From: Escherichia coli
GTDB taxonomy: Bacteria; Pseudomonadota; Gammaproteobacteria; Enterobacterales; Enterobacteriaceae
Assembly (NCBI RefSeq): GCF_013315695.1
Contig: NZ_CP054353.1
Length of the DNA: 64,000 bases
Reading direction: 5' to 3' (one strand)
The notes beneath the pieces are model-generated. The model was not told where the DNA came from. It did not search any database and saw only the letters and a program-made list of their open reading frames with translations. Positions 6,598-46,605 of the stretch are shown piece by piece. Numbering within the stretch: position 1 is the first letter of the stretch; each line of letters begins with the position of its first letter. Position numbers and translations under genes: made by a program.

Positions 6598-6652
6598 GGT
6601 GATGCTGCCAACTTACTGATTTAGTGTATGATGGTGTTTTTGAGGTGCTCCA

Positions 6653-6928
6653 GTGGCTTCTGTTTCTATCAGCTGTCCCTCCTGTTCAGCTACTGACGGG
6701 GTGGTGCGTAACGGCAAAAGCACCGCCGGACATCAGCGCTATCTCTGCTCTCACTGCCGTAAAACATGGCAACTGCAGTTCACTTACACCGCTTCTCAAC
6801 CCGGTACGCACCAGAAAATCATTGATATGGCCATGAATGGCGTTGGATGCCGGGCAACAGCCCGCATTATGGGCGTTGGCCTCAACACGATTTTACGTCA
6901 CTTAAAAAACTCAGGCCGCAGTCGGTAA
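6653..6928 (+). CDS. insA: IS1 InsA (transposition inhibitor / N-terminal part of InsAB transposase)
   Basis: 91-aa [42 protein letters not shown]..., zinc-finger CxxC...CxxC; A6C slippery site ttaaaaaac near its 3-prime end. Confidence 0.95.
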
Positions 6929-7350
6929 CCTCGCGCATACAGCCGGGCAGTGACGTCATCGTCTGCGCGGAAATGGACGAACAGTGGGGCTATGTCGGGG
7001 CTAAATCGCGCCAGCGCTGGCTGTTTTACGCGTATGACAGGCTCCGGAAGACGGTTGTTGCGCACGTATTCGGTGAACGCACTATGGCGACGCTGGGGCG
7101 TCTTATGAGCCTGCTGTCACCCTTTGACGTGGTGATATGGATGACGGATGGCTGGCCGCTGTATGAATCCCGCCTGAAGGGAAAGCTGCACGTAATCAGC
7201 AAGCGATATACGCAGCGAATTGAGCGGCATAACCTGAATCTGAGGCAGCACCTGGCACGGCTGGGACGGAAGTCGCTGTCGTTCTCAAAATCGGTGGAGC
7301 TGCATGACAAAGTCATCGGGCATTATCTGAACATAAAACACTATCAATAA
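6847..7350 (+). CDS. insB: IS1 InsB frame (expressed as InsAB by -1 frameshift)
   Basis: 167-aa ORF in -1 frame relative to insA, ending ...HYLNIKHYQ. Confidence 0.9.
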
Positions 7351-7505
7351 GTTGGAGTCATTACCACTTGAACCGATAATAAACGCAGAAATTCTATTTT
7401 GTAGCTCATTGTTGCCTCCTGTGTGAATTGTTCGAATCTACCAGGCTGCGATGAAAGAAGTCGTGTAGTAGAGAGCTATACCCGCAACAAGCGGGGCAGA
7501 CGTTC

Positions 7506-16448: not shown

Positions 16449-16476
16449 ATGCTCTGGATAAGGATCATCCAATTCT

Positions 16477-16581
16477 AAAAAAAAGCCCGGACGACGGTTC
16501 GGGCTTGTCTCATTATTTGTTGGATAAACAGTAACAAGGGTCCAACAGAAAATAATCTTTGTGACAATAAAGGCATATAAC
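16477..16581 (-). ncRNA. micC: MicC sRNA (Hfq-dependent repressor of ompC)
   Basis: Reverse complement reads GTTATATGCCTTTATTGTCAC... and ends in hairpin GCCCGAACCGTCGTCCGGGC plus T8; the 5-prime seed and terminator match MicC; lies between ydbK and ompN as in K-12. Confidence 0.8.
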
Positions 16582-16838
16582 CCGCGAAGAATAACGCATC
16601 ACTATTTAAATGTATAATTTTTATTTTGTATATGTCGCCAACAATATATTCACCAGACTTATTATCATTTCAGAAGAATTATTTGATTAAGGTTTTACTT
16701 AAGGCGTAACAAATAATATTTATCGTCTAACTGAACTTCTCCTTTAGGATGCTTTCACTCCCCGAAATGGGGATAAAAGGCAAGGTGATGCTGCCAACTT
16801 ACTGATTTAGTGTATGATGGTGTTTTTGAGGTGCTCCA

Positions 16839-17114
16839 GTGGCTTCTGTTTCTATCAGCTGTCCCTCCTGTTCAGCTACTGACGGGGTGGTGCGTAACGG
16901 CAAAAGCACCGCCGGACATCAGCGCTATCTCTGCTCTCACTGCCGTAAAACATGGCAACTGCAGTTCACTTACACCGCTTCTCAACCCGGTACGCACCAG
17001 AAAATCATTGATATGGCCATGAATGGCGTTGGATGCCGGGCAACAGCCCGCATTATGGGCGTTGGCCTCAACACGATTTTACGTCACTTAAAAAACTCAG
17101 GCCGCAGTCGGTAA
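16839..17114 (+). CDS. insA: IS1 InsA
   Basis: 91-aa ORF identical to the InsA of copy 1. Confidence 0.95.
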
Positions 17115-17536
17115 CCTCGCGCATACAGCCGGGCAGTGACGTCATCGTCTGCGCGGAAATGGACGAACAGTGGGGCTATGTCGGGGCTAAATCGCGCCAG
17201 CGCTGGCTGTTTTACGCGTATGACAGGCTCCGGAAGACGGTTGTTGCGCACGTATTCGGTGAACGCACTATGGCGACGCTGGGGCGTCTTATGAGCCTGC
17301 TGTCACCCTTTGACGTGGTGATATGGATGACGGATGGCTGGCCGCTGTATGAATCCCGCCTGAAGGGAAAGCTGCACGTAATCAGCAAGCGATATACGCA
17401 GCGAATTGAGCGGCATAACCTGAATCTGAGGCAGCACCTGGCACGGCTGGGACGGAAGTCGCTGTCGTTCTCAAAATCGGTGGAGCTGCATGACAAAGTC
17501 ATCGGGCATTATCTGAACATAAAACACTATCAATAA
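17033..17536 (+). CDS. insB: IS1 InsB frame
   Basis: 167-aa ORF identical to the InsB of copy 1. Confidence 0.9.
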
Positions 17537-17551
17537 GTTGGAGTCATTACC

Positions 17552-18357
17552 TCGATTACGGACGTAATTATGGCGTAATGTACGACATCGAAGGCTGGAC
17601 CGATATGCTGCCTGAATTTGGCGGTGACTCTTATACCAATGCAGACAACTTTATGACTGGTCGTGCCAACGGCGTCGCGACTTATCGTAATACTGATTTC
17701 TTCGGTCTGGTAAATGGTCTGAACTTCGCAGTGCAGTATCAAGGTAACAACGAAGGTGCCAGTAATGGTCAGGAAGGCACCAACAACGGACGTGATGTTC
17801 GCCATGAAAACGGTGACGGCTGGGGTCTTTCCACAACATATGATTTAGGCATGGGCTTTAGCGCTGGTGCGGCATACACCTCATCTGACCGCACCAATGA
17901 CCAGGTTAACCATACTGCGGCAGGTGGTGATAAAGCAGACGCGTGGACTGCTGGGCTAAAATACGATGCTAACAATATTTACCTGGCAACCATGTATTCA
18001 GAAACACGTAACATGACCCCGTTTGGCGACAGCGATTATGCAGTTGCGAACAAAACCCAGAACTTTGAAGTTACTGCACAGTACCAGTTTGATTTTGGTC
18101 TGCGTCCGGCAGTCTCTTTCCTGATGTCTAAAGGCCGTGACCTTCACGCTGCCGGTGGTGCAGACAACCCGGCAGGTGTTGATGATAAAGATCTGGTTAA
18201 ATACGCCGATGTTGGCGCGACTTACTATTTCAACAAAAATATGTCCACCTACGTTGACTATAAAATCAACCTGTTGGATGAAGATGACAGCTTCTACGCT
18301 GCCAACGGCATCTCTACCGATGATATTGTCGCTTTAGGTCTGGTTTATCAGTTCTAA
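17552..18357 (+). pseudogene. ompN: Outer-membrane porin OmpN, 5-prime-truncated by IS1 (about 110 N-terminal codons missing)
   Basis: Frame is open from the first base after IS1 (..[25 protein letters not shown]...LGLVYQF*), which aligns to the middle and C-terminus of OmpC-family porins; no signal peptide or promoter remains. Confidence 0.85.
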
Positions 18358-19107: not shown

Positions 19108-19161
19108 ATGTCGCAAAATCAAGAAATTAGTAAGAAAGAACAATACAACCTGAACAAGTAA
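19108..19161 (+). pseudogene. ttcC: ttcA-like 5-prime fragment marking the prophage attR
   Basis: ATG TCG CAA AAT CAA GAA ATT AGT AAG AAA GAA CAA TAC AAC CTG AAC AAG TAA encodes [17 protein letters not shown], a diverged copy of the TtcA N-terminus ([17 protein letters not shown]) at 33431. Confidence 0.7.
19132..19157. repeat. Prophage attachment core, right copy (26-bp direct repeat)
   Basis: aagaaagaacaatacaacctgaacaa, identical to 33455..33480 inside the ttcA start. Confidence 0.75.
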
Positions 19162-19257
19162 GGGCAAAAATCACAACTCTCTGACTCATAAGTATTTTAC
19201 TTATTTTTCAATGTGTTAAATATCATCAGCGACAACAATAAGCTACGATAACCCACT

Positions 19258-19310
19258 CTTTTTTTGCCCCTTTTTTGCCCCTTTTGCAGCGCTTTGCCCC
19301 ATTTTTGCCA
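19258..19310. repeat. Cluster of four TTTTGCC(CC) direct repeats
   Basis: tttttgcccc ttttttgcccc ttttgcagcgc tttgcccc atttttgcca; between attR and the sitA regulatory region. Confidence 0.4.
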
Positions 19311-19421
19311 TCAACAATTTTCCTCATCAAGTCATTTCAAAGCCTAATAGGTGCCCTACTTTTTTCCTCAGTACCACGTCGCCAGCAGGAAACAACCTAA
19401 TCCCGGTTCGGATCTAAAATT

Positions 19422-19440
19422 GCTAATGATAATCATTTTC
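19422..19440 (+). promoter_or_regulatory. Fur box upstream of sitA
   Basis: gctaatgataatcattttc matches the 19-bp Fur consensus GATAATGATAATCATTATC at 16/19 positions. Confidence 0.6.
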
Positions 19441-19462
19441 ATTTTGTATTGCTTATGCTATA

Positions 19463-19484
19463 AAACATAGCCGTTGCTATGTTT
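19463..19484 (+). promoter_or_regulatory. MntR operator upstream of sitA
   Basis: Perfect palindrome aaacatagc-cgtt-gctatgttt, the MntR-box architecture, 33 bp upstream of the sitA ATG. Confidence 0.7.
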
Positions 19485-19516
19485 GTTCTAATTTTGCTCA
19501 CTATAGGTACTAAATT

Positions 19517-20431
19517 ATGTACTCAATAAAAAAAGTAACCATGCTCTTGGGGTGCCTCGCCCTCACCTGCTCGATCGCATTTCAGGCGAGTGCAACTGAA
19601 AAATTCAAGGTCATTACAACATTTACCATCATCGCAGATATGGCCAAAAACGTGGCTGGAGATGCTGCAGAAGTCTCATCCATAACCAAGCCCGGTGCAG
19701 AAATTCATGAGTATCAGCCTACCCCTGGCGATATTAAACGTGCGCAGGAGGCACAACTGATTCTCGCCAATGGTATGAATCTGGAATTGTGGTTCCAACG
19801 CTTTTACCAGCATCTTAATGGGGTTCCAGAAGTAATTGTCTCTTCGGGTGTGACGCCAGTAGGGATCACTGAAGGCCCCTATGAGGGCAAACCTAACCCC
19901 CATGCCTGGATGTCGCCAGATAATGCTCTGATTTACGTCGATAATATTCGTGATGCGTTGATAAAATACGATCCGGCAAATGCACAAACCTACCAACGTA
20001 ATGCCGATACTTATAAAGCCAAGATTACCCAAACCCTTGCCCCCCTGCGTAAGCAGATTGCTGAACTCCCTGAGAATCAGCGATGGATGGTCACCAGTGA
20101 AGGGGCTTTTTCTTATCTCGCACGCGATTTGGGGCTAAAAGAGCTTTATCTGTGGCCGATTAATGCCGATCAACAAGGCACGCCGCAGCAGGTACGTAAG
20201 GTTGTTGATATGGTGAAGAAAAATCATATCCCGGCAGTCTTTAGCGAGAGTACGATTTCCGATAAACCAGCGCGTCAGGTTGCGCGTGAAACCGGCGCGC
20301 ACTACGGCGGTGTACTCTATGTCGATTCCCTGAGCACAGAAAACGGCCCGGTACCTACGTATATCGACCTTCTGAAGGTTACTACCAGTACGCTGGTACA
20401 GGGAATTAAAGCCGGGAAAAGGGAGAAATAA
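19517..20431 (+). CDS. sitA: Mn/Fe ABC transporter periplasmic substrate-binding protein SitA
   Basis: 304-aa ORF with signal peptide, cluster-9 metal-binding family (SitA/YfeA/MntC-like). Confidence 0.9.
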
Positions 20432-21258
20432 TGATGCAATCTGCGGGCATTGTCGTTAATGATGTTACTGTCACCTGGCGTAACGGGCACACAGCACTGC
20501 GCGATGCATCCTTCACAGTACCAAGTGGATCTATTGCCGCTCTGGTTGGGGTAAACGGTTCCGGAAAATCGACGTTGTTTAAAGCGATTATGGGATTTGT
20601 GCGTCTGACCAGCGGAAAGATATCTGTTCTGGGTATTCCCACGCGACAGGCGCTACAGAAAAACCTGGTTGCCTACGTCCCTCAGTCAGAAGAGGTTGAC
20701 TGGTCATTTCCTGTACTAGTGGAAGATGTGGTGATGATGGGCCGCTATGGGCACATGGGTATGTTGCGTATAGCCAAAAAGAGGGATCGTCAGATTGTCA
20801 CCGATGCGCTGGAACGTGTCGATATGGTGGATTTTCGCCATCGACAAATCGGCGAGCTTTCCGGTGGACAAAAGAAACGCGTCTTTCTGGCGAGAGCGAT
20901 TGCACAGCAGGGTGATGTGATCCTGCTGGATGAACCTTTTACCGGCGTTGATGTGAAAACCGAAGCGAAAATCATCAGCCTGTTGAGGGAGTTACGCGCG
21001 GAAGGCAAGACGATGCTTGTCTCAACGCACAATCTCGGCTCAGTCACGACATTTTGCGATTATACGGTCATGGTCAAAGGCACCGTCCTGGCAAGCGGGC
21101 CGACAGACACCACTTTTACAGCCGAGAACCTGGAGCTGGCTTTTAGCGGCGTACTGCGCCATGTCACACTTAACGCCTCGGAAGAAAGCATTATTACTGA
21201 CGATGAACACCCTTTTGTGGCACATCGACCGTCAGCGGTGCAGAGGGAAGCAAGATGA
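20431..21258 (+). CDS. sitB: Mn/Fe ABC transporter ATP-binding protein SitB
   Basis: 275-aa ORF with Walker [13 protein letters not shown] signature LSGGQKKR and Walker B ILLDEP. Confidence 0.9.
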
Positions 21259-22112
21259 ACGTGCTACTGGAACCCTTCAGCTATGAATATATGCTCAATG
21301 CGATGTGGGTCTCGGCGATGGTCGGCGGTCTCTGCGCTTTCCTGTCATGCTATCTGATGCTAAAAGGCTGGTCGCTGATTGGCGATGCGCTGTCGCACTC
21401 TATTGTCCCGGGTGTTGCGGGGGCATATATGCTGGGGCTTCCGTTTTCTCTGGGAGCCTTCTTTTCCGGCGGACTGGCAGCGGGCAGCATGCTGTTTCTT
21501 AACCAACGCACTCGCTTAAAAGAAGATGCCATCATCGGCCTGATCTTCTCCTCCTTTTTTGGCCTGGGGCTGTTTATGGTGTCATTGAACCCGACATCCG
21601 TGAACATTCAGACCATCGTCCTAGGCAATATTCTGGCAATCGATCCGGCGGATATCCTGCAACTCACTATCATTGGCATTCTCTCGATCATCGTGCTTTT
21701 TTTCAAATGGAAAGATCTTATGGTGACCTTTTTCGACGAGAATCACGCCCGTGCTATTGGATTGCATCCGGGCAGATTAAAAATCCTCTTCTTCACCCTG
21801 CTGTCGGTTTCGACCGTTGCGGCGCTGCAAACGGTTGGTGCCTTTCTGGTGATCTGTCTGGTGGTGACTCCCGGTGCAACAGCATGGTTGTTAACCGATC
21901 GTTTTCCCCGCCTGCTCATAATTGCTGTAACTATTGGCAGTGTAACCAGTTTCCTCGGCGCGTGGGTCAGTTACTTTCTGGACGGCGCGACAGGTGGAAT
22001 CATCGTGGTGGCGCAGACACTGCTGTTTCTTTTAGCATTTGTATTTGCGCCCACCCATGGGCTTTTGGCAAATCGTCGGCGTGCGCATAAAGCGCTGGAG
22101 GATCGCTCATGA
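21255..22112 (+). CDS. sitC: Mn/Fe ABC transporter permease SitC
   Basis: 285-aa polytopic membrane ORF; start overlaps the sitB stop. Confidence 0.9.
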
Positions 22113-22966
22113 TGGCATTATTACTGGAGCCACTGCAGTTCACCTTTATGAGTCACGCACTGCTGATTTCACTGGTAGTTTCCATACCCTGTGCGCTGCT
22201 GTCGGTCTTTCTGGTCCTGAAAGGTTGGGCACTGATGGGTGACGCGATGAGTCATGCGGTTTTTCCTGGCATCGTGCTTGCCTGGATTCTGGGGTTACCT
22301 CTGGCTACAGGGGCATTTATCGCCGGAGTATTCTGCGCGGTGGCGACGGGATACCTGAAAGACAACAGCCGAATCAAGCAAGATACAGTGATGGGGATTG
22401 TTTTTTCTGGCATGTTTGCCGCAGGTCTGATCTTGTATATTGCAGTCAAACCAGACATACATCTTGACCATATTCTTTTCGGCGACATGCTCGGGGTAAC
22501 CATCGGCGATATAATCCAGACGATGATTATTGCCGGGCTGGTTACACTTGTTATTAGCGTAAAATGGCGGGATTTTTTGCTGTTCAGCTTTGATTATCAA
22601 CAGGCGCAGGTAAGCGGTTTGCATACGCGATGGCTGCATTATGGGCTGCTGTGCATGGTTTCCCTGACCATTGTGGCGACGCTGAAAGCAGTAGGTATCA
22701 TTCTCTCCATTTCTCTGCTCATTGCGCCTGGCGCCATTGCGGTACTCCTGACACAACGCTTTCATATTGCACTCCTACTGGCGACTGGCATATCGGTAAT
22801 AGTCTCAATGACTGGTGTTTGGCTGTCCTTTTTTATCGACAGCGCACCCGCTCCGACGATTGTCGTCTTATTCGCGGTTGTGTTCATCATGACGTTTACC
22901 GTTATCAGTTTCAACGCACGCACAAAGGGAAACGCTCATAGACAGGATCTGTTATCCCCCAATTAG
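22109..22966 (+). CDS. sitD: Mn/Fe ABC transporter permease SitD
   Basis: 285-aa polytopic membrane ORF paralogous to SitC; start overlaps the sitC stop. Confidence 0.9.
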   Translation: MMALLLEPLQFTFMSHALLISLVVSIPCALLSVFLVLKGWALMGDAMSHAVFPGIVLAWILGLPLATGAFIAGVFCAVATGYLKDNSRIKQDTVMGIVFSGMFAAGLILYIAVKPDIHLDHILFGDMLGVTIGDIIQTMIIAGLVTLVISVKWRDFLLFSFDYQQAQVSGLHTRWLHYGLLCMVSLTIVATLKAVGIILSISLLIAPGAIAVLLTQRFHIALLLATGISVIVSMTGVWLSFFIDSAPAPTIVVLFAVVFIMTFTVISFNARTKGNAHRQDLLSPN

Positions 22967-23077
22967 CACAACATCCGAGGGCAGCATTGTCCGCTAGTAC
23001 ACTGCAGTCCAGAAAGTCATGGGCGGACGTTGGGAGGAGGCGCTAATCCTTTCATACAAAAAATATGTAAAATCAAT

Positions 23078-23150
23078 AACGGCTGTAAATCATTCAATAC
23101 TCGCACTATCGGAAGTTCACCAGCCAGCCGCAGCACGTTCTTGCATACGA
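23078..23150. repeat. Diverged direct repeat, left copy (3-prime end of a small membrane-protein gene plus downstream sequence)
   Basis: aatcattcaatactcgcactatcg matches 24557..24580 at 22/24; similarity continues through cttgcatacgacgtg. Reverse strand encodes ...LALSIVIGGLVKLKPQTRRMQERAAAGW* with no start codon. Confidence 0.5.
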
Positions 23151-23417
23151 CGTGTCTGCGGTTTCAACTTCACCAGTCCACCAATCACGATGGACAGTGC
23201 CAAGACAGCACTAGCAAAAACAGGAAATTAGCAGTCTCAGCAGAACACCGACCAGACGGTGAAGAAACAAAAAAGGATACGCAAAGGGGCCGCAGTTCCC
23301 GATTGATAAAAAAGCCAGCTTATGCGCTTTTTTTTCATGTATTATTAAGTATTGGTTAGCGTCTTTTTAATCAGAACTTTAAAGACAAGCCATTTGTAAG
23401 AAAACCGACAGATTCGG

Positions 23418-24233
23418 TTGACAAGCAGGAGTAATACTTTGGACATAAGAAAAGATTTGGAATCAGTAGCCCAATATATAAGTAGACTGTTATCGATAGG
23501 GTACGAATTTAGCCGTTTTGATAAAGACTGGGTCCATTTAAAAAATGAAGAGGATTTTCGTTTTATTTCAAGAATACCATTTGCAACACGGAATAAAGTG
23601 GAAGCAGTATATGCGGAAGGCAGAGATATGGCACTTTATATGTCTGATGAGTTACTATCCATTAATAGTGATTTCAGTAAATTTCCAACGTTGACAGCTA
23701 TTATCGAAAGATTCAAGGACACTTGGGTTTATGGTAATTATGATTCGGAAGTGCCAAATATAGCTAAAAAAACATGCGAAGAAAATGCAGTTCAGCTTTG
23801 GTCTGTAGAACAGATGTGTTCCTTATTCAAAAAGCAAGAACAACTATTAGCAGCAGTACGTATCACATTGCAGATGCTACAAGATAGTGACCTATACAAG
23901 ATGGAGAATGGTTTACCTCTTATGAAACAAGAAGCTAATATTCATGTCAGTGGAATTTCCGGTTCTAGTATCAATATACATTCTTCAGGTGCTACGGCAA
24001 CTACTACGACAAATTATAATGAGCCCACAATATTTAATGAAATGATTGAGGCAATAAAATCGAAAAACTTTGATGGCGCGACAGAATCACACCTTATAGA
24101 TAATGTACAGGCACTGGCAGCCAGTCACCAAAGCGGCTGTTTTAAAGAAGCATATAAGGACTTTATTAATAATGTATCTGCACACATTACAGTATTTACT
24201 CCATTTCTTGCTGGCATATCATCTTTACTATAA
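23418..24233 (+). CDS. Orphan hypothetical protein in AT-rich islet (function unknown)
   Basis: 271-aa ORF from the track; no in-frame ATG near the 5-prime end, likely start TTG at 23439 with AGGAG 8 nt upstream; AT-rich codon usage unlike flanking genes; C-terminal low-complexity Ser/Thr stretch and hydrophobic tail. Confidence 0.5.
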   Translation: MTSRSNTLDIRKDLESVAQYISRLLSIGYEFSRFDKDWVHLKNEEDFRFISRIPFATRNKVEAVYAEGRDMALYMSDELLSINSDFSKFPTLTAIIERFKDTWVYGNYDSEVPNIAKKTCEENAVQLWSVEQMCSLFKKQEQLLAAVRITLQMLQDSDLYKMENGLPLMKQEANIHVSGISGSSINIHSSGATATTTTNYNEPTIFNEMIEAIKSKNFDGATESHLIDNVQALAASHQSGCFKEAYKDFINNVSAHITVFTPFLAGISSLL

Positions 24234-24556
24234 AATAAGTGACAGATACATTAATACATAACGAAAAATCTTTTTAGCTACTCATTCATATCAATAGTGC
24301 CCTACCATAGGGCACATTATTCGTGGAACTCGTTTATGACAAAAGAATTTTGATGGTCTGCCTGATGCAACAGATATAATTCTGGGAGTGTTGAGTAAGA
24401 GTATTCACCGGCGCTCAACACAAATGCCAGCAAGCACGAGAAAGAGCAGGTAAGCCTGAGTGTTCAGGAAATGTTTGAAAAGGCTAATATGTGGCTGGTT
24501 TCAGATTAAACGCCTTGAACCGTCATATTACTTAAGTACAATCCGCCTAGACTAGC

Positions 24557-24630
24557 AATCATTCAATAGTAGCACTATCGAGCGCTCGCCAGTCGAGCGC
24601 AATCATGCTCCTTGCATACGGCGTGCAGCA
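24557..24630. repeat. Diverged direct repeat, right copy
   Basis: aatcattcaatagtagcactatcg ... cttgcatacggcgtg; partner of 23078..23150. Confidence 0.5.
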
Positions 24631-24778
24631 TATCACAAAACGATTACGCCATGACGGACTGCAGGCTACTCAATATCTGGCTCGATTAGCGTATTGGCAT
24701 GATTTAACAGACCCCGGCGCTTATTCCCAGCAACCTGAAGCGGCACCTCTTCCTGTGTTGCGTTTACAACTCCCTTTT

Positions 24779-25072
24779 TCACCCACGATTAACCAACAGC
24801 CAGACCAGCAGACAAGCCACCACCGGCACAGAAAAATCCATCAGGCTTGCCACATCCCACACGCGCGGATCAAAACCACCCCACCACGGCATATTCATAC
24901 GCTTGCCATGCCCGAACATTTCAATCCAGCGATATTCTGCCTGGGTATGTTCACGAGCAATGAAGAACGTACAACCGGCTATCGCCCCGTAAGCCCAGTT
25001 TCCGGTAAAAAGACCAACCAGTACCTGCGCAGCCACAGCACAAAGTGCATGAAGGAAAGGTGTTATATCCAT
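24779..25072 (-). CDS. Small hydrophobic (probable inner-membrane) protein, function unknown
   Basis: ORF track 24779..25087; ATG at 25070-25072 preceded by AGGA; MDITPFLHALCAVAAQVLVGLF... with about three predicted TM segments; its C-terminus is homologous to the fragment encoded by the left direct repeat. Confidence 0.5.
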   Translation of the reverse strand: MDITPFLHALCAVAAQVLVGLFTGNWAYGAIAGCTFFIAREHTQAEYRWIEMFGHGKRMNMPWWGGFDPRVWDVASLMDFSVPVVACLLVWLLVNRG

Positions 25073-25148
25073 TTTCATCCTACCCAATAAAACGAGGCGC
25101 TCGGCCCCTTAATATTATTTAGACGCAAGCGTCGGTAATGACTCCAAC

Positions 25149-25652
25149 TTATTGATAGTGTTTTATGTTCAGATAATGCCCGATGACTTTGTCATGCAGC
25201 TCCACCGATTTTGAGAACGACAGCGACTTCCGTCCCAGCCGTGCCAGGTGCTGCCTCAGATTCAGGTTATGCCGCTCAATTCGCTGCGTATATCGCTTGC
25301 TGATTACGTGCAGCTTTCCCTTCAGGCGGGATTCATACAGCGGCCAGCCATCCGTCATCCATATCACCACGTCAAAGGGTGACAGCAGGCTCATAAGACG
25401 CCCCAGCGTCGCCATAGTGCGTTCACCGAATACGTGCGCAACAACCGTCTTCCGGAGCCTGTCATACGCGTAAAACAGCCAGCGCTGGCGCGATTTAGCC
25501 CCGACATAGCCCCACTGTTCGTCCATTTCCGCGCAGACGATGACGTCACTGCCCGGCTGTATGCGCGAGGTTACCGACTGCGGCCTGAGTTTTTTAAGTG
25601 ACGTAAAATCGTGTTGAGGCCAACGCCCATAATGCGGGCTGTTGCCCGGCAT
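25149..25652 (-). CDS. insB: IS1 InsB frame
   Basis: 167-aa ORF identical to the other InsB copies. Confidence 0.9.
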
Positions 25653-25846
25653 CCAACGCCATTCATGGCCATATCAATGATTTTCTGGTGCGTACCGGGT
25701 TGAGAAGCGGTGTAAGTGAACTGCAGTTGCCATGTTTTACGGCAGTGAGAGCAGAGATAGCGCTGATGTCCGGCGGTGCTTTTGCCGTTACGCACCACCC
25801 CGTCAGTAGCTGAACAGGAGGGACAGCTGATAGAAACAGAAGCCAC
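25571..25846 (-). CDS. insA: IS1 InsA
   Basis: 91-aa ORF identical to the other InsA copies. Confidence 0.95.
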
Positions 25847-25925
25847 TGGAGCACCTCAAAAACACCATCATACACTAAATCAGTAAGTTGGCAGCATCAC
25901 CCCCGGCGTTAAGGGGAGAGATAAG

Positions 25926-26060
25926 ATGGTGCATTACGAAGTAGTTCAGTATTTGATGGATTGTTGCGGTATCACTTACAACCAGGCTGTGCAGGCTTTA
26001 CGCAGCAACGCCTGGGATCTCTGGCAGGCAGAAGTCGCTATACGTAGCAACAAGATGTGA
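25926..26060 (+). CDS. ydaG: Rac-prophage small protein (YdaG-like, 44 aa)
   Basis: Below the ORF-track cutoff; ATG 25926 to TGA 26058-26060 encodes MVHYEVVQYLMDCCGITYNQAVQALRSNAWDLWQAEVAIRSNKM; assigned by size and position next to sieB. Confidence 0.5.
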   Translation: MVHYEVVQYLMDCCGITYNQAVQALRSNAWDLWQAEVAIRSNKM

Positions 26061-26070
26061 GATTCGCAAA

Positions 26071-26226
26071 ATGCAAAAAATCGACCTCGGCAACAACGAA
26101 TCCCTGGTGTGCGGCGTGTTCCCCAACCAGGATGGAACGTTCACTGCCATGACGTATACCAAAAGCAAAACATTTAAAACCGAAACTGGTGCGCGCCGAT
26201 GGTTGGAGAAGCACACAGTAAGCTAA
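26071..26226 (+). CDS. ydaF: Rac-prophage small protein (YdaF-like, 51 aa)
   Basis: Below the ORF-track cutoff; ATG 26071 to TAA 26224-26226 encodes MQKIDLGNNESLVCGVFPNQDGTFTAMTYTKSKTFKTETGARRWLEKHTVS; convergent with sieB. Confidence 0.5.
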   Translation: MQKIDLGNNESLVCGVFPNQDGTFTAMTYTKSKTFKTETGARRWLEKHTVS

Positions 26227-26711
26227 CGATTAAAACGTCTACTCCTGCTGTTCCAGAATAACTTCATAAAATGGGAGTATTTTTCGGTGACGAGATAATA
26301 AGAACAGTTTGCGCTATCACTCTGATGTTGAATGATGCCCTTCCGTTCTAATTTTTTCATAACCGGGTTACGGCAAGGAGAAGTGATAATAAGATTTCCT
26401 GTTTTAAGGAAATCTTTAAATACAGCGATTTCTTTCTCAGATAAACGAAGCAATACTCGTTGCTCTGGTAGTAATGAATAATGCTTTTGAATATGTGCTC
26501 GCAATCTTGAGAAGGAAATGGCGACCACGAAAGAAAAGGCAAAAACGATAATCTGAAAGAGCCAAGGTATTTCAGTATAAGCATTGAATGCGACAGTAAA
26601 CTCTTTCGGTATCAGCCAGAGAGTGAGACCAAAAATGATAATCGTATACATAAGTCTTTCGAGTGGCTCGTTAGCAAAAAGTTTCAATAATGGAGTAGAT
26701 ACATCCAACAT
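26223..26711 (-). CDS. sieB: Superinfection exclusion protein B
   Basis: ORF track 26223..26834; ATG at 26709-26711 gives MLDVSTPLLKLFANEPLERLMYTIIIFGLTLWLIP... (162 aa) with two TM helices. Confidence 0.85.
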   Translation of the reverse strand: MLDVSTPLLKLFANEPLERLMYTIIIFGLTLWLIPKEFTVAFNAYTEIPWLFQIIVFAFSFVVAISFSRLRAHIQKHYSLLPEQRVLLRLSEKEIAVFKDFLKTGNLIITSPCRNPVMKKLERKGIIQHQSDSANCSYYLVTEKYSHFMKLFWNSRSRRFNR

Positions 26712-27151
26712 ATCAATAACTCTCAACTGTAAGGGTATTGAAATGTTAACACAAGCTCTCGCTGTAGGGGTATAGCCGAGACCACCGAAGCCCGGAGGTG
26801 GTGAAATAAAACCGGGCACAACACGAAGGCGCATTTCCGATATCCATAAAGAGTCGGTCTTGTCTGTTAAATTTAAATGGTGGGAGTGCGCCTCCGGTTG
26901 TAAATAACGACATTGCTGTGTGTAGTCCTGGCGGCATCAGTTTTTTCTTGAAGTTCGGCTGATGTCCGCCCTTTTTTAAGTGAATTTTGTGATGCGGTGA
27001 ATGCGGCTAAGCGCACGTGGCACAGTTAAAAGTCATGTTAGTCCTTATTGGTTTGGGTGGGAAAGCCGACTGTAATTGTTAACTGGTTGCAGTCACCTGG
27101 AGGCACCAGGCACCGCATCAACAAAGTTCATTTGTAAAAATGGAGATAATT

Positions 27152-27373
27152 ATGATTGCACATCACTTCGGAACTGATGAAATACCACGTCAGTGTGTGA
27201 CTCCTGGCGATTATGTTCTTCATGAAGGCCGGACATATATTGCCTCGGCAAACAATATTAAAAAGCGAAAACTATATATTCGTAACCTGACCACAAAAAC
27301 ATGCATTACTGACCGCATGATTAAAGTCTTCCTCGGTCGTGATGGTTTACCTGTAAAGGCGGAGTCATGGTGA
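27152..27373 (+). CDS. kilR: Rac-prophage killing protein KilR (FtsZ inhibitor)
   Basis: ORF track 27140..27373; ATG at 27152 after GGAG gives [42 protein letters not shown]... (73 aa). Confidence 0.9.
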
Positions 27374-27543
27374 TGACTAAGAAAATAAAATGTGCTTACC
27401 ACCTTTGCAAAAAAGACGTTGAAGAAAGCAAAGCTATTGAAAGAATGCTTCACTTCATGCACGGGATTTTATCAAAAGACGAACCGAGAAAATATTGCAG
27501 TGAATCTTGTGCCGAAAAAGACCAGATGGCACATGAACTTTAA
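27373..27543 (+). CDS. ydaE: Rac-prophage small zinc-binding protein YdaE
   Basis: Below the ORF-track cutoff; ATG overlaps the kilR TGA (TGATG); [56 protein letters not shown] (56 aa) with a Cys-rich motif. Confidence 0.7.
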   Translation: MTKKIKCAYHLCKKDVEESKAIERMLHFMHGILSKDEPRKYCSESCAEKDQMAHEL

Positions 27544-27617
27544 TTAATTGACTATTCGAAACTGAATTTATGCCAGAAATGGCAGGTATTCGCTCAACCT
27601 TAATTAAGGAGAAAAAC

Positions 27618-27893
27618 ATGATTACCAATTATGAAGCCACTGTTGTAACTACCGATGACATTGTTCACGAGGTGAATCTGGAAGGAAAGCGCATTGGCTA
27701 CGTAATTAAAACAGAAAATAAAGAAACCCCATTCACTGTGGTTGATATCGATGGTCCATCAGGCAACGTAAAAACACTTGATGAAGGTGTCAAAAAAATG
27801 TGCCTGGTGCATATCGGAAAGAATCTGCCCGCAGAAAAAAAAGCCGAATTTCTGGCAACTCTAATTGCAATGAAATTAAAAGGTGAAATCTGA
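27618..27893 (+). CDS. racC: Rac-prophage protein RacC
   Basis: ORF track 27570..27893; ATG at 27618 gives MITNYEATVVTTDDIVHEVNLEGKRIGYVIKTENKETPF... (91 aa). Confidence 0.85.
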   Translation: MITNYEATVVTTDDIVHEVNLEGKRIGYVIKTENKETPFTVVDIDGPSGNVKTLDEGVKKMCLVHIGKNLPAEKKAEFLATLIAMKLKGEI

Positions 27894-27994
27894 AAGAAAT
27901 AGCCTGCGTATGGCGCAGGCTATGAACAGTGTGTATCCGGCAAGATCATTCACTGAACAAAACGAATTTTAATCTGAGTTGAGGTTAAAAAACA

Positions 27995-30595
27995 ATGAGC
28001 ACAAAACCACTCTTCCTGTTACGGAAAGCGAAAAAATCATCCGGTGAACCTGACGTCGTCCTGTGGGCAAGCAACGATTTTGAATCGACCTGTGCCACTC
28101 TGGACTACCTGATCGTTAAGTCAGGTAAAAAACTGAGCAGCTATTTTAAAGCTGTTGCCACGAATTTTCCTGTCGTTAATGACCTGCCCGCTGAAGGTGA
28201 GATCGATTTTACCTGGAGTGAACGCTATCAACTCAGCAAAGACTCCATGACATGGGAACTAAAACCGGGAGCAGCACCAGACAACGCTCACTATCAAGGC
28301 AATACCAACGTCAACGGCGAAGACATGACTGAGATTGAGGAGAATATGCTACTCCCAATTTCTGGCCAGGAACTGCCCATTCGTTGGCTTGCTCAACACG
28401 GCAGCGAAAAACCGGTAACGCACGTTTCACGCGACGGACTCCAGGCATTACACATTGCTCGGGCTGAAGAACTACCGGCTGTTACTGCCCTGGCTGTTTC
28501 CCACAAAACCAGCCTGCTCGACCCGCTGGAAATTCGCGAACTCCACAAACTGGTTCGTGACACTGACAAAGTTTTCCCTAATCCTGGTAATTCAAACCTG
28601 GGACTGATAACTGCTTTTTTCGAAGCATACCTGAACGCTGACTACACCGATCGAGGACTGCTGACAAAAGAGTGGATGAAGGGTAATCGTGTTTCACACA
28701 TCACTCGCACGGCTTCCGGTGCTAATGCTGGCGGCGGAAACCTCACCGATCGCGGCGAAGGTTTCGTACACGATCTGACGTCACTGGCGCGCGACGTAGC
28801 CACTGGCGTACTGGCCCGTTCAATGGATCTGGACATCTATAACCTTCATCCGGCACACGCTAAACGCATTGAGGAAATTATCGCTGAAAATAAACCGCCC
28901 TTTTCTGTTTTCCGCGACAAATTCATCACCATGCCTGGCGGGCTGGATTATTCCCGCGCCATCGTGGTTGCGTCCGTAAAAGAAGCACCAATTGGGATCG
29001 AGGTCATCCCCGCGCACGTCACTGAATATCTGAACAAAGTACTGACTGAAACCGATCATGCCAACCCTGATCCGGAAATCGTGGATATTGCCTGCGGTCG
29101 CTCCTCTGCCCCGATGCCGCAGCGAGTAACAGAAGAAGGAAAACAGGATGATGAAGAAAAACCGCAACCATCTGGAACAACGGCAGTTGAACAGGGAGAG
29201 GCTGAAACAATGGAACCGGACGCAACTGAACATCATCAGGACACGCAGCCGCTGGATGCTCAGTCACAGGTAAATTCTATTGATGCGAAATATCAGGAAC
29301 TGCGGGCAGAACTCCATGAAGCCCGGAAAAACATTCCATCAAAAGATCCTGTCGATGCCGATAAATTGCTTGCTGCATCACGTGGTGAATTTGTTGACGG
29401 AATTAGCGACCCGAACGATCCGAAATGGGTAAAGGGGATCCAGACTCGCGATTGTGTGTACCAGAACCAGCCAGAAACGGAAAAAACCAGCCCGGATATG
29501 AATCAACCTGAGCCAGTAGTGCAACAGGAACCGGAAATAGCCTGCAATGCCTGCGGCCAGACTGGCGGGGATAACTGCCCTGACTGTGGTGCGGTGATGG
29601 GCGACGCAACATACCAGGAAACATTCGATGAAGAGAGTCAGGTTGAAGCTAAGGAAAATGATCCGGAGGAAATGGAAGGCGCTGAACATCCGCACAATGA
29701 GAATGCTGGCAGCGATCCGCATCGCGATTGCAGTGATGAAACTGGCGAAGTCGCAGATCCCGTAATCGTAGAAGACATAGAGCCAGGTATTTATTACGGA
29801 ATTTCGAATGAGAATTACCACGCGGGTCCCGGTGTCAGTAAGTCTCAGCTCGATGACATTGCTGATACTCCGGCACTATATTTGTGGCGTAAAAATGCCC
29901 CCGTTGACACCACAAAGACAAAAACGCTCGATTTAGGAACCGCTTTCCACTGCCGGGTACTTGAACCGGAAGAATTCAGTAACCGCTTTATCGTAGCACC
30001 TGAATTTAACCGCCGTACAAACGCCGGAAAAGAAGAAGAGAAAGCGTTTCTGATGGAATGCGCAAGCACAGGAAAAACAGTTATCACTGCGGAAGAAGGC
30101 CGGAAAATTGAACTCATGTATCAAAGCGTTATGGCTTTGCCGCTGGGGCAATGGCTTGTTGAAAGCGCCGGACACGCTGAATCATCAATTTACTGGGAAG
30201 ATCCTGAAACAGGAATTTTGTGTCGGTGCCGTCCGGACAAAATTATCCCTGAATTTCACTGGATCATGGACGTGAAAACTACGGCGGATATTCAACGATT
30301 CAAAACCGCTTATTACGACTACCGCTATCACGTTCAGGATGCATTCTACAGTGACGGTTATGAAGCACAGTTTGGAGTGCAGCCAACTTTCGTTTTTCTG
30401 GTTGCCAGCACAACTATTGAATGCGGACGTTATCCGGTTGAAATTTTCATGATGGGCGAAGAAGCAAAACTGGCAGGTCAACAGGAATATCACCGCAATC
30501 TGCGAACCCTGTCTGACTGCCTGAATACCGATGAATGGCCAGCTATTAAGACATTATCACTGCCCCGCTGGGCTAAGGAATATGCAAATGACTAA
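27995..30595 (+). CDS. recE: Exodeoxyribonuclease VIII (RecE)
   Basis: 866-aa [44 protein letters not shown]...; full length with the C-terminal nuclease domain; overlaps the recT start by 8 nt. Confidence 0.95.
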
Positions 30596-31397
30596 GCAAC
30601 CACCAATCGCAAAAGCCGATCTGCAAAAAACTCAGGGAAACCGTGCACCAGCAGCAGTTAAAAATAGCGACGTGATTAGTTTTATTAACCAGCCATCAAT
30701 GAAAGAGCAACTGGCAGCAGCTCTTCCACGCCATATGACGGCTGAACGTATGATCCGTATCGCCACCACAGAAATTCGTAAAGTTCCGGCGTTAGGAAAC
30801 TGTGACACTATGAGTTTTGTCAGTGCGATCGTACAGTGTTCACAGCTCGGACTTGAGCCAGGTAGCGCCCTCGGTCATGCATATTTACTGCCTTTTGGTA
30901 ATAAAAACGAAAAGAGCGGTAAAAAGAACGTTCAGCTAATCATTGGCTATCGCGGCATGATTGATCTGGCTCGCCGTTCTGGTCAAATCGCCAGCCTGTC
31001 AGCCCGTGTTGTCCGTGAAGGTGACGAGTTTAGCTTCGAATTTGGCCTTGATGAAAAGTTAATACACCGCCCGGGAGAAAACGAAGATGCCCCGGTTACC
31101 CACGTCTATGCTGTCGCAAGACTGAAAGACGGAGGTACTCAGTTTGAAGTTATGACGCGCAAACAGATTGAGCTGGTGCGCAGCCTGAGTAAAGCTGGTA
31201 ATAACGGGCCGTGGGTAACTCACTGGGAAGAAATGGCAAAGAAAACGGCTATTCGTCGCCTGTTCAAATATCTGCCCGTATCAATTGAGATCCAGCGTGC
31301 AGTATCAATGGATGAAAAGGAACCACTGACAATCGATCCTGCAGATTCCTCTGTATTAACCGGGGAATACAGTGTAATCGATAATTCAGAGGAATAA
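30588..31397 (+). CDS. recT: Single-strand annealing recombinase RecT
   Basis: ORF track 30531..31397; ATG at 30588 gives [35 protein letters not shown]... (269 aa). Confidence 0.95.
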
Positions 31398-31453
31398 TTC
31401 AGCCTGGCGGTGTAATGCACCGCCAACTTGAAATATTTTTTATGAGAAAAATT

Positions 31454-31648
31454 ATGAGATATGACAATGTTAAACCATGTCCATTTTGTGGTTGTCCATC
31501 AGTAACGGTGAAAGTCATTTCAGGATATTACCGAGCGAAGTGTAACGGATGCGAATCCCGAACCGGTTATGGTGGAAGTGAAAAAGAAGCACTCGAAAGA
31601 TGGAATAAACGAACCACTGGAAATAATAACGGAGGTGTTCATGTATAA
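31454..31648 (+). CDS. ralR: Restriction-alleviation protein / type I toxin RalR (Lar)
   Basis: ORF track 31415..31648; ATG at 31454 gives MRYDNVKPCPFCGCPSVTVKVISGYYRAKCNGCESRTGYGG... (64 aa). Confidence 0.85.
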   Translation: MRYDNVKPCPFCGCPSVTVKVISGYYRAKCNGCESRTGYGGSEKEALERWNKRTTGNNNGGVHV

Positions 31649-31829
31649 AATTACCGCCACTATTGAAAAGGAAGGTGGCACTCCTACTAACTGGACAAGA
31701 TATTCAAAATCTAAACTAACGAAATCAGAATGCGAAAAAATGCTCTCAGGTAAAAAAGAAGCAGGCGTTTCCAGAGAGCAGAAAGTAAAACTGATAAATT
31801 TTAATTGCGAGAAACTTCAGTCCTCGTGA
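31641..31829 (+). CDS. ydaC: Rac-prophage protein YdaC
   Basis: ORF track 31569..31829; ATG at 31641 (GGAGG upstream) gives MYKITATIEKEGGTPTNWTRYSKSKL... (62 aa); overlaps the ralR 3-prime end by 8 nt. Confidence 0.7.
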   Translation: MYKITATIEKEGGTPTNWTRYSKSKLTKSECEKMLSGKKEAGVSREQKVKLINFNCEKLQSS

Positions 31830-31928
31830 ATTGCATTGTATTCAAATTAAAACTTCATAGCTGATTATTAATAATCAACATCGGGCGTCAATTTCAGTCT
31901 AACATTGGCGCCTGCCAGAGGTGATGCG

Positions 31929-32144
31929 ATGGCACAAGTAATCTTTAATGAAGAGTGGATGGTTGAATACGGCCTGATGCTTCGCACTGGTCTGGGGGCC
32001 AGACAAATTGAAGCATACCGCCAGAACTGTTGGGTGGAGGGCTTCCACTTCAAACGAGTATCTCCTTTAGGTAAGCCAGACAGCAAACGAGGGATTATCT
32101 GGTACAACTATCCAAAGATAAATCAGTTTATCAAAGACTCATGA
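31929..32144 (+). CDS. xisR: Rac-prophage excisionase
   Basis: ORF track 31905..32144; ATG at 31929 gives [44 protein letters not shown]... (71 aa); stop overlaps the intR start region. Confidence 0.8.
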
Positions 32145-32145
32145 T

Positions 32146-33379
32146 ATGTCTAAATTACCAACAGGTGTCGAGATTAGAGGTAGATACATTCGCATCTGGT
32201 TCATGTTTCGAGGAAAACGATGTCGGGAAACATTAAAAGGCTGGGAGATTACAAACAGTAATATTAAAAAGGCCGGAAATTTAAGAGCGCTGATAGTTCA
32301 TGAAATAAACTCCGGTAAATTTGAGTATTTAAGACGTTTTCCCCAGTCCAGCACTGGGGCAAAAATGGTGATAACGAGAGTCATAAAAACGTTCGGAGAG
32401 CTTTGTGATATCTGGACAAAAATTAAAGAGACAGAGTTAACAACAAACACAATAAAGAAAACGAAATCACAATTAAAAACACTCAGAATAATAATTTGTG
32501 AAAGTACCCTGATATCACATATTCGTTATAGCGATATCTTAAACTACCGGAATGAACTGCTGCATGGAGAAACGCTTTACCTGGATAATCCAAGATCCAA
32601 CAAAAAAGGAAGAACCGTGCGCACAGTTGATAACTATATCGCCCTGCTCTGTTCGCTGTTACGTTTTGCGTATCAGTCGGGATTTATATCAACCAAACCA
32701 TTTGAAGGAGAAAAAATTACAGCGAAACAGAATAAAGCCTGATCCGTTATCTAAAACAGAATTCAATGCATTAATGGAAAGTGAAAAAGGACAGAGCCAG
32801 AACATGTGGAAATTTGCAGTTTACTCAGGACTTCGTCACGGGGAACTGGCAGCTCTGGCGTGGGAGGATGTGGATCTCGAAAAGGGAATAGTGAATGTCA
32901 GAAGAAACCTGACGATACTTGATATGTTCGGTCCCCCAAAAACAAATGCCGGGATCCGGACAGTAACACTACTGCAGCCTGCTCTTGAAGCACTGAAGGA
33001 GCAATACAAACTGACCGGGCATCATCGCAAAAGCGAAATCACCTTTTATCATCGGGAGTACGGCAGAACCGAAAAGCAAAAACTGCATTTTGTTTTCATG
33101 CCCAGGGTGTGTAACGGAAAACAAAAACCTTATTACTCGGTAAGCAGTTTGGGGGCAAGGTGGAATGCAGCAGTAAAACGTGCTGGTATTCGCCGCCGTA
33201 ATCCGTACCATACGCGGCATACTTTTGCCTGCTGGCTGTTGACGGCAGGAGCGAACCCGGCATTTATAGCCAGCCAAATGGGGCATGAAACTGCGCAGAT
33301 GGTGTATGAAATTTACGGTATGTGGATTGATGACATGAACGACGAACAGATAGCCATGTTGAATGCGCGGTTATCATAG
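32146..33379 (+). pseudogene. intR: Rac-prophage tyrosine integrase, apparently split by a +/-1 frameshift near 32709-32716
   Basis: ORF 32146..32742 (198 aa, ...STKPFEGEKITAKQNKA*) and ORF 32552..33379 carry the N- and C-terminal parts (catalytic ...HTRHTFACWLL...) in adjacent frames; frames switch in the run gagaaaaaatt; the sum of the parts is about 411 codons. Confidence 0.7.
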
Positions 33380-33430
33380 TTGCAAAGTTTGCCCCCAATT
33401 TGCCCCATTTAGTACCAGAGAACTGAAATA

Positions 33431-34366
33431 ATGCAAGAAAATCAACAAATTACAAAGAAAGAACAATACAACCTGAACAAATTACAAAAACGTCTGCGTC
33501 GTAACGTGGGCGAAGCCATTGCTGACTTCAATATGATTGAAGAAGGCGATCGCATCATGGTTTGCCTCTCCGGGGGTAAAGACAGCTATACCATGCTGGA
33601 AATTCTGCGCAATTTGCAGCAAAGCGCGCCAATCAATTTTTCGCTGGTGGCTGTTAACCTCGATCAAAAACAACCGGGCTTCCCGGAACACGTTCTGCCC
33701 GAGTATCTTGAAAAGCTGGGCGTTGAGTACAAGATTGTGGAAGAGAACACTTACGGTATCGTGAAAGAGAAGATTCCGGAGGGCAAAACCACTTGCTCAC
33801 TGTGTTCTCGTCTTCGTCGCGGTATCCTTTATCGCACCGCAACGGAACTGGGGGCGACGAAGATCGCGTTGGGTCACCATCGTGACGATATCCTGCAAAC
33901 GCTGTTCTTAAATATGTTCTACGGCGGCAAGATGAAAGGTATGCCTCCGAAACTGATGAGCGATGATGGCAAACATATCGTGATTCGCCCGCTGGCCTAC
34001 TGCCGCGAGAAAGATATTCAGCGCTTTGCCGATGCAAAAGCGTTCCCGATTATTCCGTGCAACCTGTGCGGTTCACAGCCTAACCTGCAACGTCAGGTGA
34101 TTGCTGACATGTTGCGTGACTGGGATAAACGTTATCCGGGGCGTATCGAGACGATGTTCAGCGCGATGCAGAATGTGGTGCCATCGCATCTGTGCGATAC
34201 CAACCTGTTCGATTTCAAAGGCATTACCCACGGTTCTGAAGTGGTTAACGGGGGTGATCTGGCGTTTGATCGCGAAGAGATCCCTCTACAACCGGCGGGT
34301 TGGCAGCCTGAAGAAGATGAAAATCAGTTGGATGAGTTACGACTGAATGTGGTTGAAGTGAAATAA
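33431..34366 (+). CDS. ttcA: tRNA 2-thiocytidine(32) synthetase TtcA
   Basis: 311-aa ORF with PP-loop SGGKDS and CxxC motifs; the att core lies inside its first 50 nt. Confidence 0.95.
33455..33480. repeat. Prophage attachment core, left copy (26-bp direct repeat)
   Basis: aagaaagaacaatacaacctgaacaa, identical to 19132..19157. Confidence 0.75.
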
Positions 34367-35897: not shown

Positions 35898-36071
35898 TCA
35901 GCAGGCACGTATCCTCGCAGATCTACGCTCACGATGCGACAATTTAATCGGTTCTTCATCGGGGGGTGGGTCAGGCATGGGTTGCGGGCGAGGGATCGGA
36001 TCGGGCACAGGAACAGGATCGCCAGGAATCGGTTCAGGGACAGGAATTTGCAAATAAATGAGTGTCGTCAT
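35898..36071 (-). CDS. Candidate proline-rich small protein (57 aa), unannotated
   Basis: Below the ORF-track cutoff; ATG at 36069-36071 preceded by GGAGGG; encodes MTTLIYLQIPVPEPIPGDPVPVPDPIPRPQPMPDPPPDEEPIKLSHRERRSARIRAC*; co-oriented with zntB, fnrS and dbpA. Confidence 0.35.
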   Translation of the reverse strand: MTTLIYLQIPVPEPIPGDPVPVPDPIPRPQPMPDPPPDEEPIKLSHRERRSARIRAC

Positions 36072-36128
36072 ATTTCCCTCCGGTCATTGGGTGGACTCTT
36101 AAAGGGTAGACGCTGATATATAACAGGC

Positions 36129-36250
36129 AAAAAAAAGCCGACTCATCAAAGTCGGCGTCGTACGAATCAATTGTGCTATGCAGTAATTCAAAAAAGGAAG
36201 TAAGACAATATGGAGCGCAACGCCCATCGCTTGACGTTGCATTCACCTGC
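36129..36250 (-). ncRNA. fnrS: FnrS sRNA (FNR-activated, Hfq-dependent)
   Basis: Reverse complement starts GCAGGTGAATGCAACGTCAAGCGATGGGCG... and ends in hairpin GCCGACTTTGATGAGTCGGC plus T8; 122 nt; lies between zntB and dbpA as in K-12. Confidence 0.8.
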
Positions 36251-36285
36251 AAGGGAGATATTGCCCTGAATGGGTAGAGAGTTTA

Positions 36286-36299
36286 TTGACTTCGCTCAA
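36286..36299. promoter_or_regulatory. FNR binding site of the fnrS promoter
   Basis: ttgacttcgctcaa (TTGAT-N4-ATCAA type), centred about 42 bp upstream of the inferred FnrS 5-prime end. Confidence 0.6.
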
Positions 36300-36345
36300 A
36301 CTTTGCGGCGTTTTTGTATACAGACAGCCGGGAAAATTGCTTTTG

Positions 36346-37350
<1,005 letters not shown>

Positions 37351-39627: not shown

Positions 39628-39722
39628 ACCGGCGCAGAGGAGACCATGCCGGATTTAAGACGCGGATGCACTGCTGTGTGTACTGTAGAGTCTGGCGGAT
39701 GTCGACAGACTCTATTTTTTTA
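39628..39722 (+). ncRNA. mcaS: McaS (IsrA) sRNA
   Basis: ACCGGCGCAGAGGAGACCATGCCGGATTTAAGACGCGGATGCACTGCTGTGTGTACTGTAGAGTCTGGCGGATGTCGACAGACTCTATTTTTTT; matches McaS and its terminator; lies between smrA and abgR as in K-12. Confidence 0.8.
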
Positions 39723-39729
39723 TGCAGTT

Positions 39730-45658: not shown

Positions 45659-45819
45659 ACATTAAACAATTTGTGCCAGCTTGTTCACACTTTTATGTAA
45701 AGTCACCCTTAACAACTTAAGGGTTTTCAAATAGATAGACATATATTTACATCTAATATCGGAATTCTCTGCTGTTAAGGTTTGCTTAGACTTACTTGCT
45801 CCCTAAAAAGATGTTAAAA

Positions 45820-45833
45820 TTGACAAATATCAA
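45820..45833. promoter_or_regulatory. FNR autoregulatory site in the fnr promoter
   Basis: ttgacaaatatcaa (TTGAT-N4-ATCAA), 20 bp upstream of the fnr ATG. Confidence 0.6.
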
Positions 45834-45852: not shown

Positions 45853-46605
45853 ATGATCCCGGAAAAGCGAATTATACGGCGCATTCAGTCTGGCGGTTGT
45901 GCTATCCATTGCCAGGATTGCAGCATCAGCCAGCTTTGCATCCCGTTCACACTCAACGAACATGAGCTTGATCAGCTTGATAATATCATTGAGCGGAAGA
46001 AGCCTATTCAGAAAGGCCAGACGCTGTTTAAGGCTGGTGATGAACTAAAATCGCTTTATGCCATCCGCTCCGGTACGATTAAAAGTTATACCATTACTGA
46101 GCAAGGCGACGAGCAAATCACTGGTTTCCATTTAGCTGGTGACCTGGTGGGATTTGATGCAATCGGCAGCGGTCATCACCCGAGCTTCGCGCAGGCGCTG
46201 GAAACCTCGATGGTATGTGAAATCCCGTTCGAAACGCTGGACGATTTGTCCGGTAAAATGCCGAATCTGCGTCAGCAGATGATGCGTCTGATGAGCGGTG
46301 AAATCAAAGGCGATCAGGACATGATCCTGCTGTTGTCGAAGAAAAATGCCGAGGAACGTCTGGCTGCATTCATCTACAACCTGTCCCGTCGTTTTGCCCA
46401 ACGCGGCTTCTCCCCTCGTGAATTCCGCCTGACGATGACTCGTGGCGATATCGGTAACTATCTGGGCCTGACGGTAGAAACCATCAGCCGTCTGCTGGGT
46501 CGCTTCCAGAAAAGCGGTATGCTAGCAGTCAAAGGTAAATACATCACCATCGAAAATAACGATGCGCTGGCCCAGCTTGCTGGTCACACGCGTAACGTTG
46601 CCTGA
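45853..46605 (+). CDS. fnr: Anaerobic global regulator FNR
   Basis: ORF track 45796..46605; ATG at 45853 gives [32 protein letters not shown]... (250 aa) with the Cys cluster and C-terminal helix-turn-helix. Confidence 0.97.

Follow-up and report, generated by a model that had tools for sequence, protein, structure and literature searches.

The minus strand of positions 36129–36299 of the window almost certainly carries the canonical fnrS gene of Escherichia coli, which encodes a 122-nt Hfq-dependent sRNA and is preceded by a class II FNR-dependent sigma-70 promoter; the window is the whole 64-kb stretch of DNA that was analysed. fnrS is a known and near-universal E. coli gene and nothing new, and the sequence offers no counter-argument to this identification. 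Of 5426 complete E. coli genomes, 5392 carry the gene, and in 5389 of these 5392 its identity is 99% or higher. With fnr also present in the window, the strain carries the complete FNR-FnrS pair of the K-12 model in identical form, and K-12 knowledge therefore transfers directly. The finding itself matters little beyond correct annotation. The comparison of the fnrS promoter across species illustrates the FNR class II promoter cleanly, and the remodelling of the neighbouring Rac remnant by IS1 and sitABCD left the FNR-FnrS pair untouched.

The elements of the fnrS locus are the following:

36250..36129, minus strand: fnrS (122-nt FnrS sRNA), with +1 at 36250 and the last terminator U at 36129
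36129..36156, minus strand: rho-independent terminator, from the terminator scan, the MFE fold and the Rfam consensus structure
36254, minus strand: T to C relative to K-12 at -4, in the discriminator region, from direct comparison
36258..36263, minus strand: -10 hexamer CAATAT (-13 to -8)
36286..36299, minus strand: FNR box TTGAGCGAAGTCAA, from identity to K-12, published ChIP-seq and in-register conservation
36311..36315, minus strand: A-tract AAAAA (-65 to -61), just upstream of the FNR box, from cross-species conservation

In a direct comparison, fnrS of the window is identical to fnrS of K-12 MG1655 (b4699, annotated at 1409129-1409250) at 122 of 122 positions. Read on the minus strand from 36250 to 36129, it begins with GCAGGTGAATGC and ends with GAGTCGGCTTTTTTTT. 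The Rfam scan, which covered the whole 64-kb window at gathering thresholds, returned four matches above threshold, one of which is FnrS (RF01796). This match spans 36250..36133 and the full length of the model (positions 1-119 of 119), with a score of 134.8 bits (E=4.4e-24) against a gathering score of 60. The first-pass annotation of this DNA had described FnrS as recognisable in full, and both the covariance score and the identity to K-12 bear this out. The limits that it gave, 36129-36299, are exact, with 36129 being the last U of the tail and 36299 the far edge of the FNR box. The alignment to K-12 fnrS, which it had named as a check, was run and contains no mismatch at the seed or at any other position, the seed positions being taken from conservation and secondary sources. 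Compared with the K-12 locus, the window thus shares the entire RNA, the FNR box at -42.5, the -10 hexamer and the terminator, and differs by the T to C substitution at -4 of the promoter and by three more substitutions in the flanking intergenic DNA. The RNA, the FNR box and the -10 hexamer are free of substitutions.

The fnrS promoter

The FNR box TTGAGCGAAGTCAA is 14 bp long and is read from 36299 to 36286 on the transcribed strand; counted from +1 at 36250, its centre falls at -42.5. The computed centre agrees with the position of about -42 proposed in the first-pass annotation and equals the published one: in Table 1 of Myers et al., 2013 (PMC3688515), fnrS has an FNR ChIP-seq peak in its upstream region, and -42.5 is given for the site that scores highest. 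From -60 to +1, the substitution at -4 is the single difference from the K-12 promoter. A generic promoter scan detected no stand-alone sigma-70 -35/-10 consensus at fnrS. The missing -35 consensus is consistent with activator dependence rather than with the absence of a promoter. The class II FNR promoters of narK, nrfA and caiF are built in the same way, with intact TTGA/TCAA cores that overlap the -35 position, a weak -10 element and, likewise, no match to the -35 consensus. These three promoters have the box centred at the commoner -41.5, whereas ydhY shares the -42.5 spacing with fnrS (PMC3688515).

To compare the promoter across species, FnrS loci were gathered with a degenerate pattern inside stem-loop 1, using one genome per species, which yielded at least 120 loci. 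The upstream sequences were aligned ungapped on +1 and comprise 118 distinct Enterobacterales sequences among the matches listed. The genera covered include Escherichia, Citrobacter, Enterobacter, Serratia, Yersinia, Pantoea and Erwinia, as well as Dickeya, Pectobacterium, Edwardsiella, Photorhabdus, Arsenophonus and Sodalis. Among these 118 sequences from the matches listed, the promoter columns behave as follows:

TGA-N6-TCAA: 111 of 118 have it at one and the same ungapped distance from +1
T(-48), G(-47), T(-39), C(-38), A(-37) and A(-36): 99-100% conserved
Columns -31 to -18 (spacer): practically no information
G(-14), C(-13), A(-12) and T(-8): 99% conserved
Columns -64 to -61 (A-tract): A in 73-94%, with the adjoining columns unconserved

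The two positions that matter most in a -10 hexamer correspond to A(-12) and T(-8), and the CAATAT of the window retains both. The combination of a box in fixed register, fixed -10 bases and a free spacer is, as a pattern in the alignment, what characterises activator-dependent promoters of class II. The conserved A-tract upstream of the box may be a candidate contact for the C-terminal domain of the RNA polymerase alpha subunit (alpha-CTD).

The substitution at -4 invites another reading, in which fnrS is intact but the change from T to C alters the promoter output, making it weaker, stronger or less strictly FNR-dependent, and the circuit would be the same in sequence yet quantitatively different. 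T occupies this position in K-12 and in 91% of the 118 species sequences (among the matches listed), and the window has C. However, -4 lies outside both the FNR box and the -10 hexamer, C is also seen in further species such as Citrobacter youngae, and the exact 70-nt promoter allele of the window with C at -4 is common, with 1355 carriers among 5255 complete E. coli genomes (~26%). A large effect of this position is also not expected from established promoter knowledge, and we regard an altered output as quite unlikely.

The FNR box as the element that drives fnrS does not rest on motif frequency. Matches to TTGAT-N4-ATCAA with up to two mismatches are not enriched in the window (53, against 40.4 ± 7.0 in shuffled sequences); since this number is at chance level, the count was dropped as evidence, and positional conservation and the published ChIP data were used. 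The same count would suit the explanation that the FNR-like box matches the consensus by chance and that something else drives FnrS, but the box does not differ from the K-12 site under the ChIP-seq peak at -42.5 (PMC3688515), its core keeps its register in the 111 of 118 sequences among the matches listed while the spacer beside it is unconserved, and the promoter scan detected no alternative sigma-70 promoter. Identity to the K-12 ChIP-seq site and the fixed register effectively refute the chance-motif explanation, which we consider extremely improbable, and it is on K-12 identity, published ChIP-seq and in-register conservation that the FNR box is accepted as real.

Structure and predicted action of the FnrS RNA

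In the minimum free energy (MFE) fold of FnrS, which resembles the Rfam consensus structure, stem-loop 1 at nt 10-35 and stem-loop 2 at nt 62-87 flank a C/U-rich linker that is unpaired, and a terminator hairpin at nt 95-114 leads into U8. The terminator hairpin (36156..36137) has an 8-bp stem, GCCGACUU/GAGUCGGC, with five G-C pairs and a UGAU loop, and the U8 tail occupies 36136..36129. A terminator with a U-tail is the Hfq-binding module of the sRNA class to which FnrS belongs. The z-score of the fold energy is unremarkable (-1.67), so that stability alone is insufficient for identification; FnrS is instead identified by the covariance model and by its sequence identity.

Outside the stems, nt 1-12 and the linker at nt 43-60 are the most conserved parts of the RNA, with 80-100% conservation in ~109 distinct sequences among the matches listed. 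Both segments fall outside the region that was fixed by the search pattern, and their conservation is consistent with a role as pairing regions. FnrS of the window has the consensus base at every position because it is identical to K-12 FnrS. The mechanical list of open reading frames holds two minus-strand ORFs over this stretch, 36034..36252 (72 aa) and 36243..36398 (51 aa), but the chance that the stretch is protein-coding rather than an sRNA is practically nil, and both ORFs are rejected as spurious: they start with TTG, overlap the strong RF01796 match and the terminator, and are annotated neither in K-12 nor in related genomes, and the conservation in the ~109 sequences (among the matches listed) is RNA-like, with invariant stems and linker, and not codon-like.

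By analogy with the identical K-12 sequences, the expected action of the sRNA FnrS can be outlined. Without oxygen, [4Fe-4S]-FNR dimers would bind the box at -42.5 and recruit RNA polymerase. The resulting FnrS transcript would end at the GC-rich hairpin and U8 and be bound by Hfq. Through its invariant 5´ end and the C/U-rich single-stranded linker, FnrS would pair with the ribosome-binding regions of mRNAs for functions that are unneeded anaerobically, with sodB, gpmA, cydDC, yobA and iscR as the targets expected from K-12, and the pairing would block translation of the targets and lower their mRNA levels. At the other end of the circuit, FNR would repress its own promoter through the -0.5 site. 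In the published work, sodB, gpmA, cydDC and yobA are among the FnrS-dependent operons of Table 5 (PMC3688515), and a 2024 PNAS paper describes the anaerobic expression of FnrS and its direct, Hfq-assisted pairing with iscR (PMC11572966).

The fnr gene and the neighbourhood of fnrS

The features that define the surroundings of fnrS are the following:

45853..46605, plus strand: fnr coding sequence (250 aa), whose translation is identical to K-12 FNR
45820..45833, plus strand: FNR autoregulatory site TTGACAAATATCAA in the fnr promoter, with one mismatch to the consensus
36346..37329, minus strand: zntB (ydaN), the upstream neighbour of fnrS, from the ORF list and the annotation of K-12 and MSB1_4I
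35898..36071, minus strand: ynaL, the downstream neighbour, encoding a 57-aa proline-rich small protein identical to K-12 YnaL
33438..33480, strand not assigned: Rac attachment repeat, within ttcA at its 5´ end, from a 43-bp repeat and the Rac boundary of K-12, which maps here

The fnr gene lies 9.6 kb from fnrS. The autoregulatory site TTGACAAATATCAA is located 20 nt upstream of the fnr ATG at 45853, in surroundings identical to K-12, and a second FNR-like sequence, TTAAGGGTTTTCAA, is present at 45717-45730, 103 bp upstream of TTGACAAATATCAA. TTAAGGGTTTTCAA agrees with the upstream fnr site reported at -103.5 by Mettert and Kiley, 2007. The ogt-fnr intergenic region is identical to K-12 at 193 of 194 positions, with the lone substitution, at 45704, outside both FNR-like sites; the negative autoregulation of fnr in K-12 is thus matched by the same site and an identical FNR protein, and the window differs from it by this one substitution. 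The autoregulatory site that the first-pass annotation had placed at 45820-45833 is therefore present. Table 1 of Myers et al., 2013 lists the fnr promoter as repressed, with an FNR site at -0.5 (PMC3688515), to which TTGACAAATATCAA at 45820-45833 corresponds as judged by its placement in the sequence.

Both genes of the pair are part of a single 22-kb block (window 25902-48140) that is collinear with K-12 and 98.7% identical to it, although the orientation of the window is the reverse of the K-12 map. The block runs through Rac ydaG, recET, ralR/ralA, xisR and intR to ttcA, dbpA, ynaL, fnrS, zntB, dgcM, smrA, mcaS, abg, ogt, fnr, uspE and ynaJ, so that fnrS sits between zntB and dbpA in the order zntB-fnrS-ynaL-dbpA, as in K-12. 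The first-pass annotation had placed the sRNA next to a prophage boundary. This holds loosely, in that the Rac repeat is the nearest boundary, whereas direct adjacency does not: 2.65 kb separate the Rac repeat from the 3´ end of FnrS, with ynaL, dbpA and ttcA between them, exactly as in K-12. The partner of the Rac repeat is at 19115-19157, with 93% identity over 43 bp. Conservation of the anaerobic circuit, the other part of the claim, stands, but the qualification that it was conserved despite surrounding rearrangements is worded too strongly, as the rearrangements (sitABCD and IS1 within Rac, and the truncation of ompN by IS1) all lie outside the collinear block and none of them is closer than ~10 kb. 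With rearrangements at least about 10 kb away from fnrS, there is no particular reason to expect damage.

On the downstream side, ynaL begins 57-58 nt past the FnrS terminator on the same strand and lies directly upstream of dbpA. The gene is annotated in K-12 and relatives, and YnaL has been detected as a protein (2018 Proteomics paper, PMC6001520). Read-through of the FnrS terminator could place ynaL under FNR control. Taken jointly, the refinements of the fnrS locus would be that C at -4 changes the dosage of FnrS in roughly one in four E. coli lineages, that the A-tract is a needed docking element for the alpha-CTD, and that terminator read-through couples ynaL and dbpA to FNR and anaerobiosis; this combined proposal is unlikely.

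The Rac remnant and the IS1 copies

The Rac remnant of the window (19158-33480) measures 14.3 kb, compared with 23 kb in K-12. The K-12 segment from racR to pinR is replaced by sitABCD, a few hypothetical genes and IS1, and the recET/ralR-ralA/xisR side is kept. The sitABCD operon, which encodes an iron/manganese transporter, is at about 19517-22966, and the IS1 copy is at 25134-25901. Few complete E. coli genomes (103 of 5426) contain at least 80% of this Rac-sitABCD arrangement in one place. The gene for the Rac integrase, intR (window 32146-33379), is frameshifted, with K-12 residues 1-190 and 169-411 encoded in different frames. The frameshift suggests that the Rac remnant probably lacks an integrase of its own and has likely become fixed.

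IS1 is present as three identical 768-bp copies (6598-7365, 16784-17551 and 25134-25901), the third of which is inverted. The second copy abuts codon 110 of ompN (ompN region 16784-18355), so that ompN lacks the promoter and codons 1-109. In MSB1_4I, the complete genome closest to the window, the same IS1 is present but ompN is intact and there are 362 additional bp, which points to a deletion next to IS1 in the window. The divergent sRNA gene by ompN, micC (16469-16584, minus strand), is intact by Rfam. The IS1 copies are potential substrates for more deletions or inversions across the micC-ompN-Rac region.

Besides FnrS, the matches above the Rfam gathering thresholds are the Rac antitoxin RNA RalA (31647-31825, minus strand; 225 bits), McaS (39628-39723, plus strand; 117 bits) and MicC (104 bits), the last of which has a 7-nt deletion relative to the model in the first hairpin loop. 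At the far end of the collinear block, the IS5 element that lies between ynaJ and ynaI in K-12 is absent from the window, and the alignment with K-12 stops (48140) exactly at the IS5 end. In the stretch of MSB1_4I that matches ~61-63 kb of the window, fragments of the ycj genes are annotated, namely parts of a permease gene and of ycjT, and a deletion there seems likely from these fragments.
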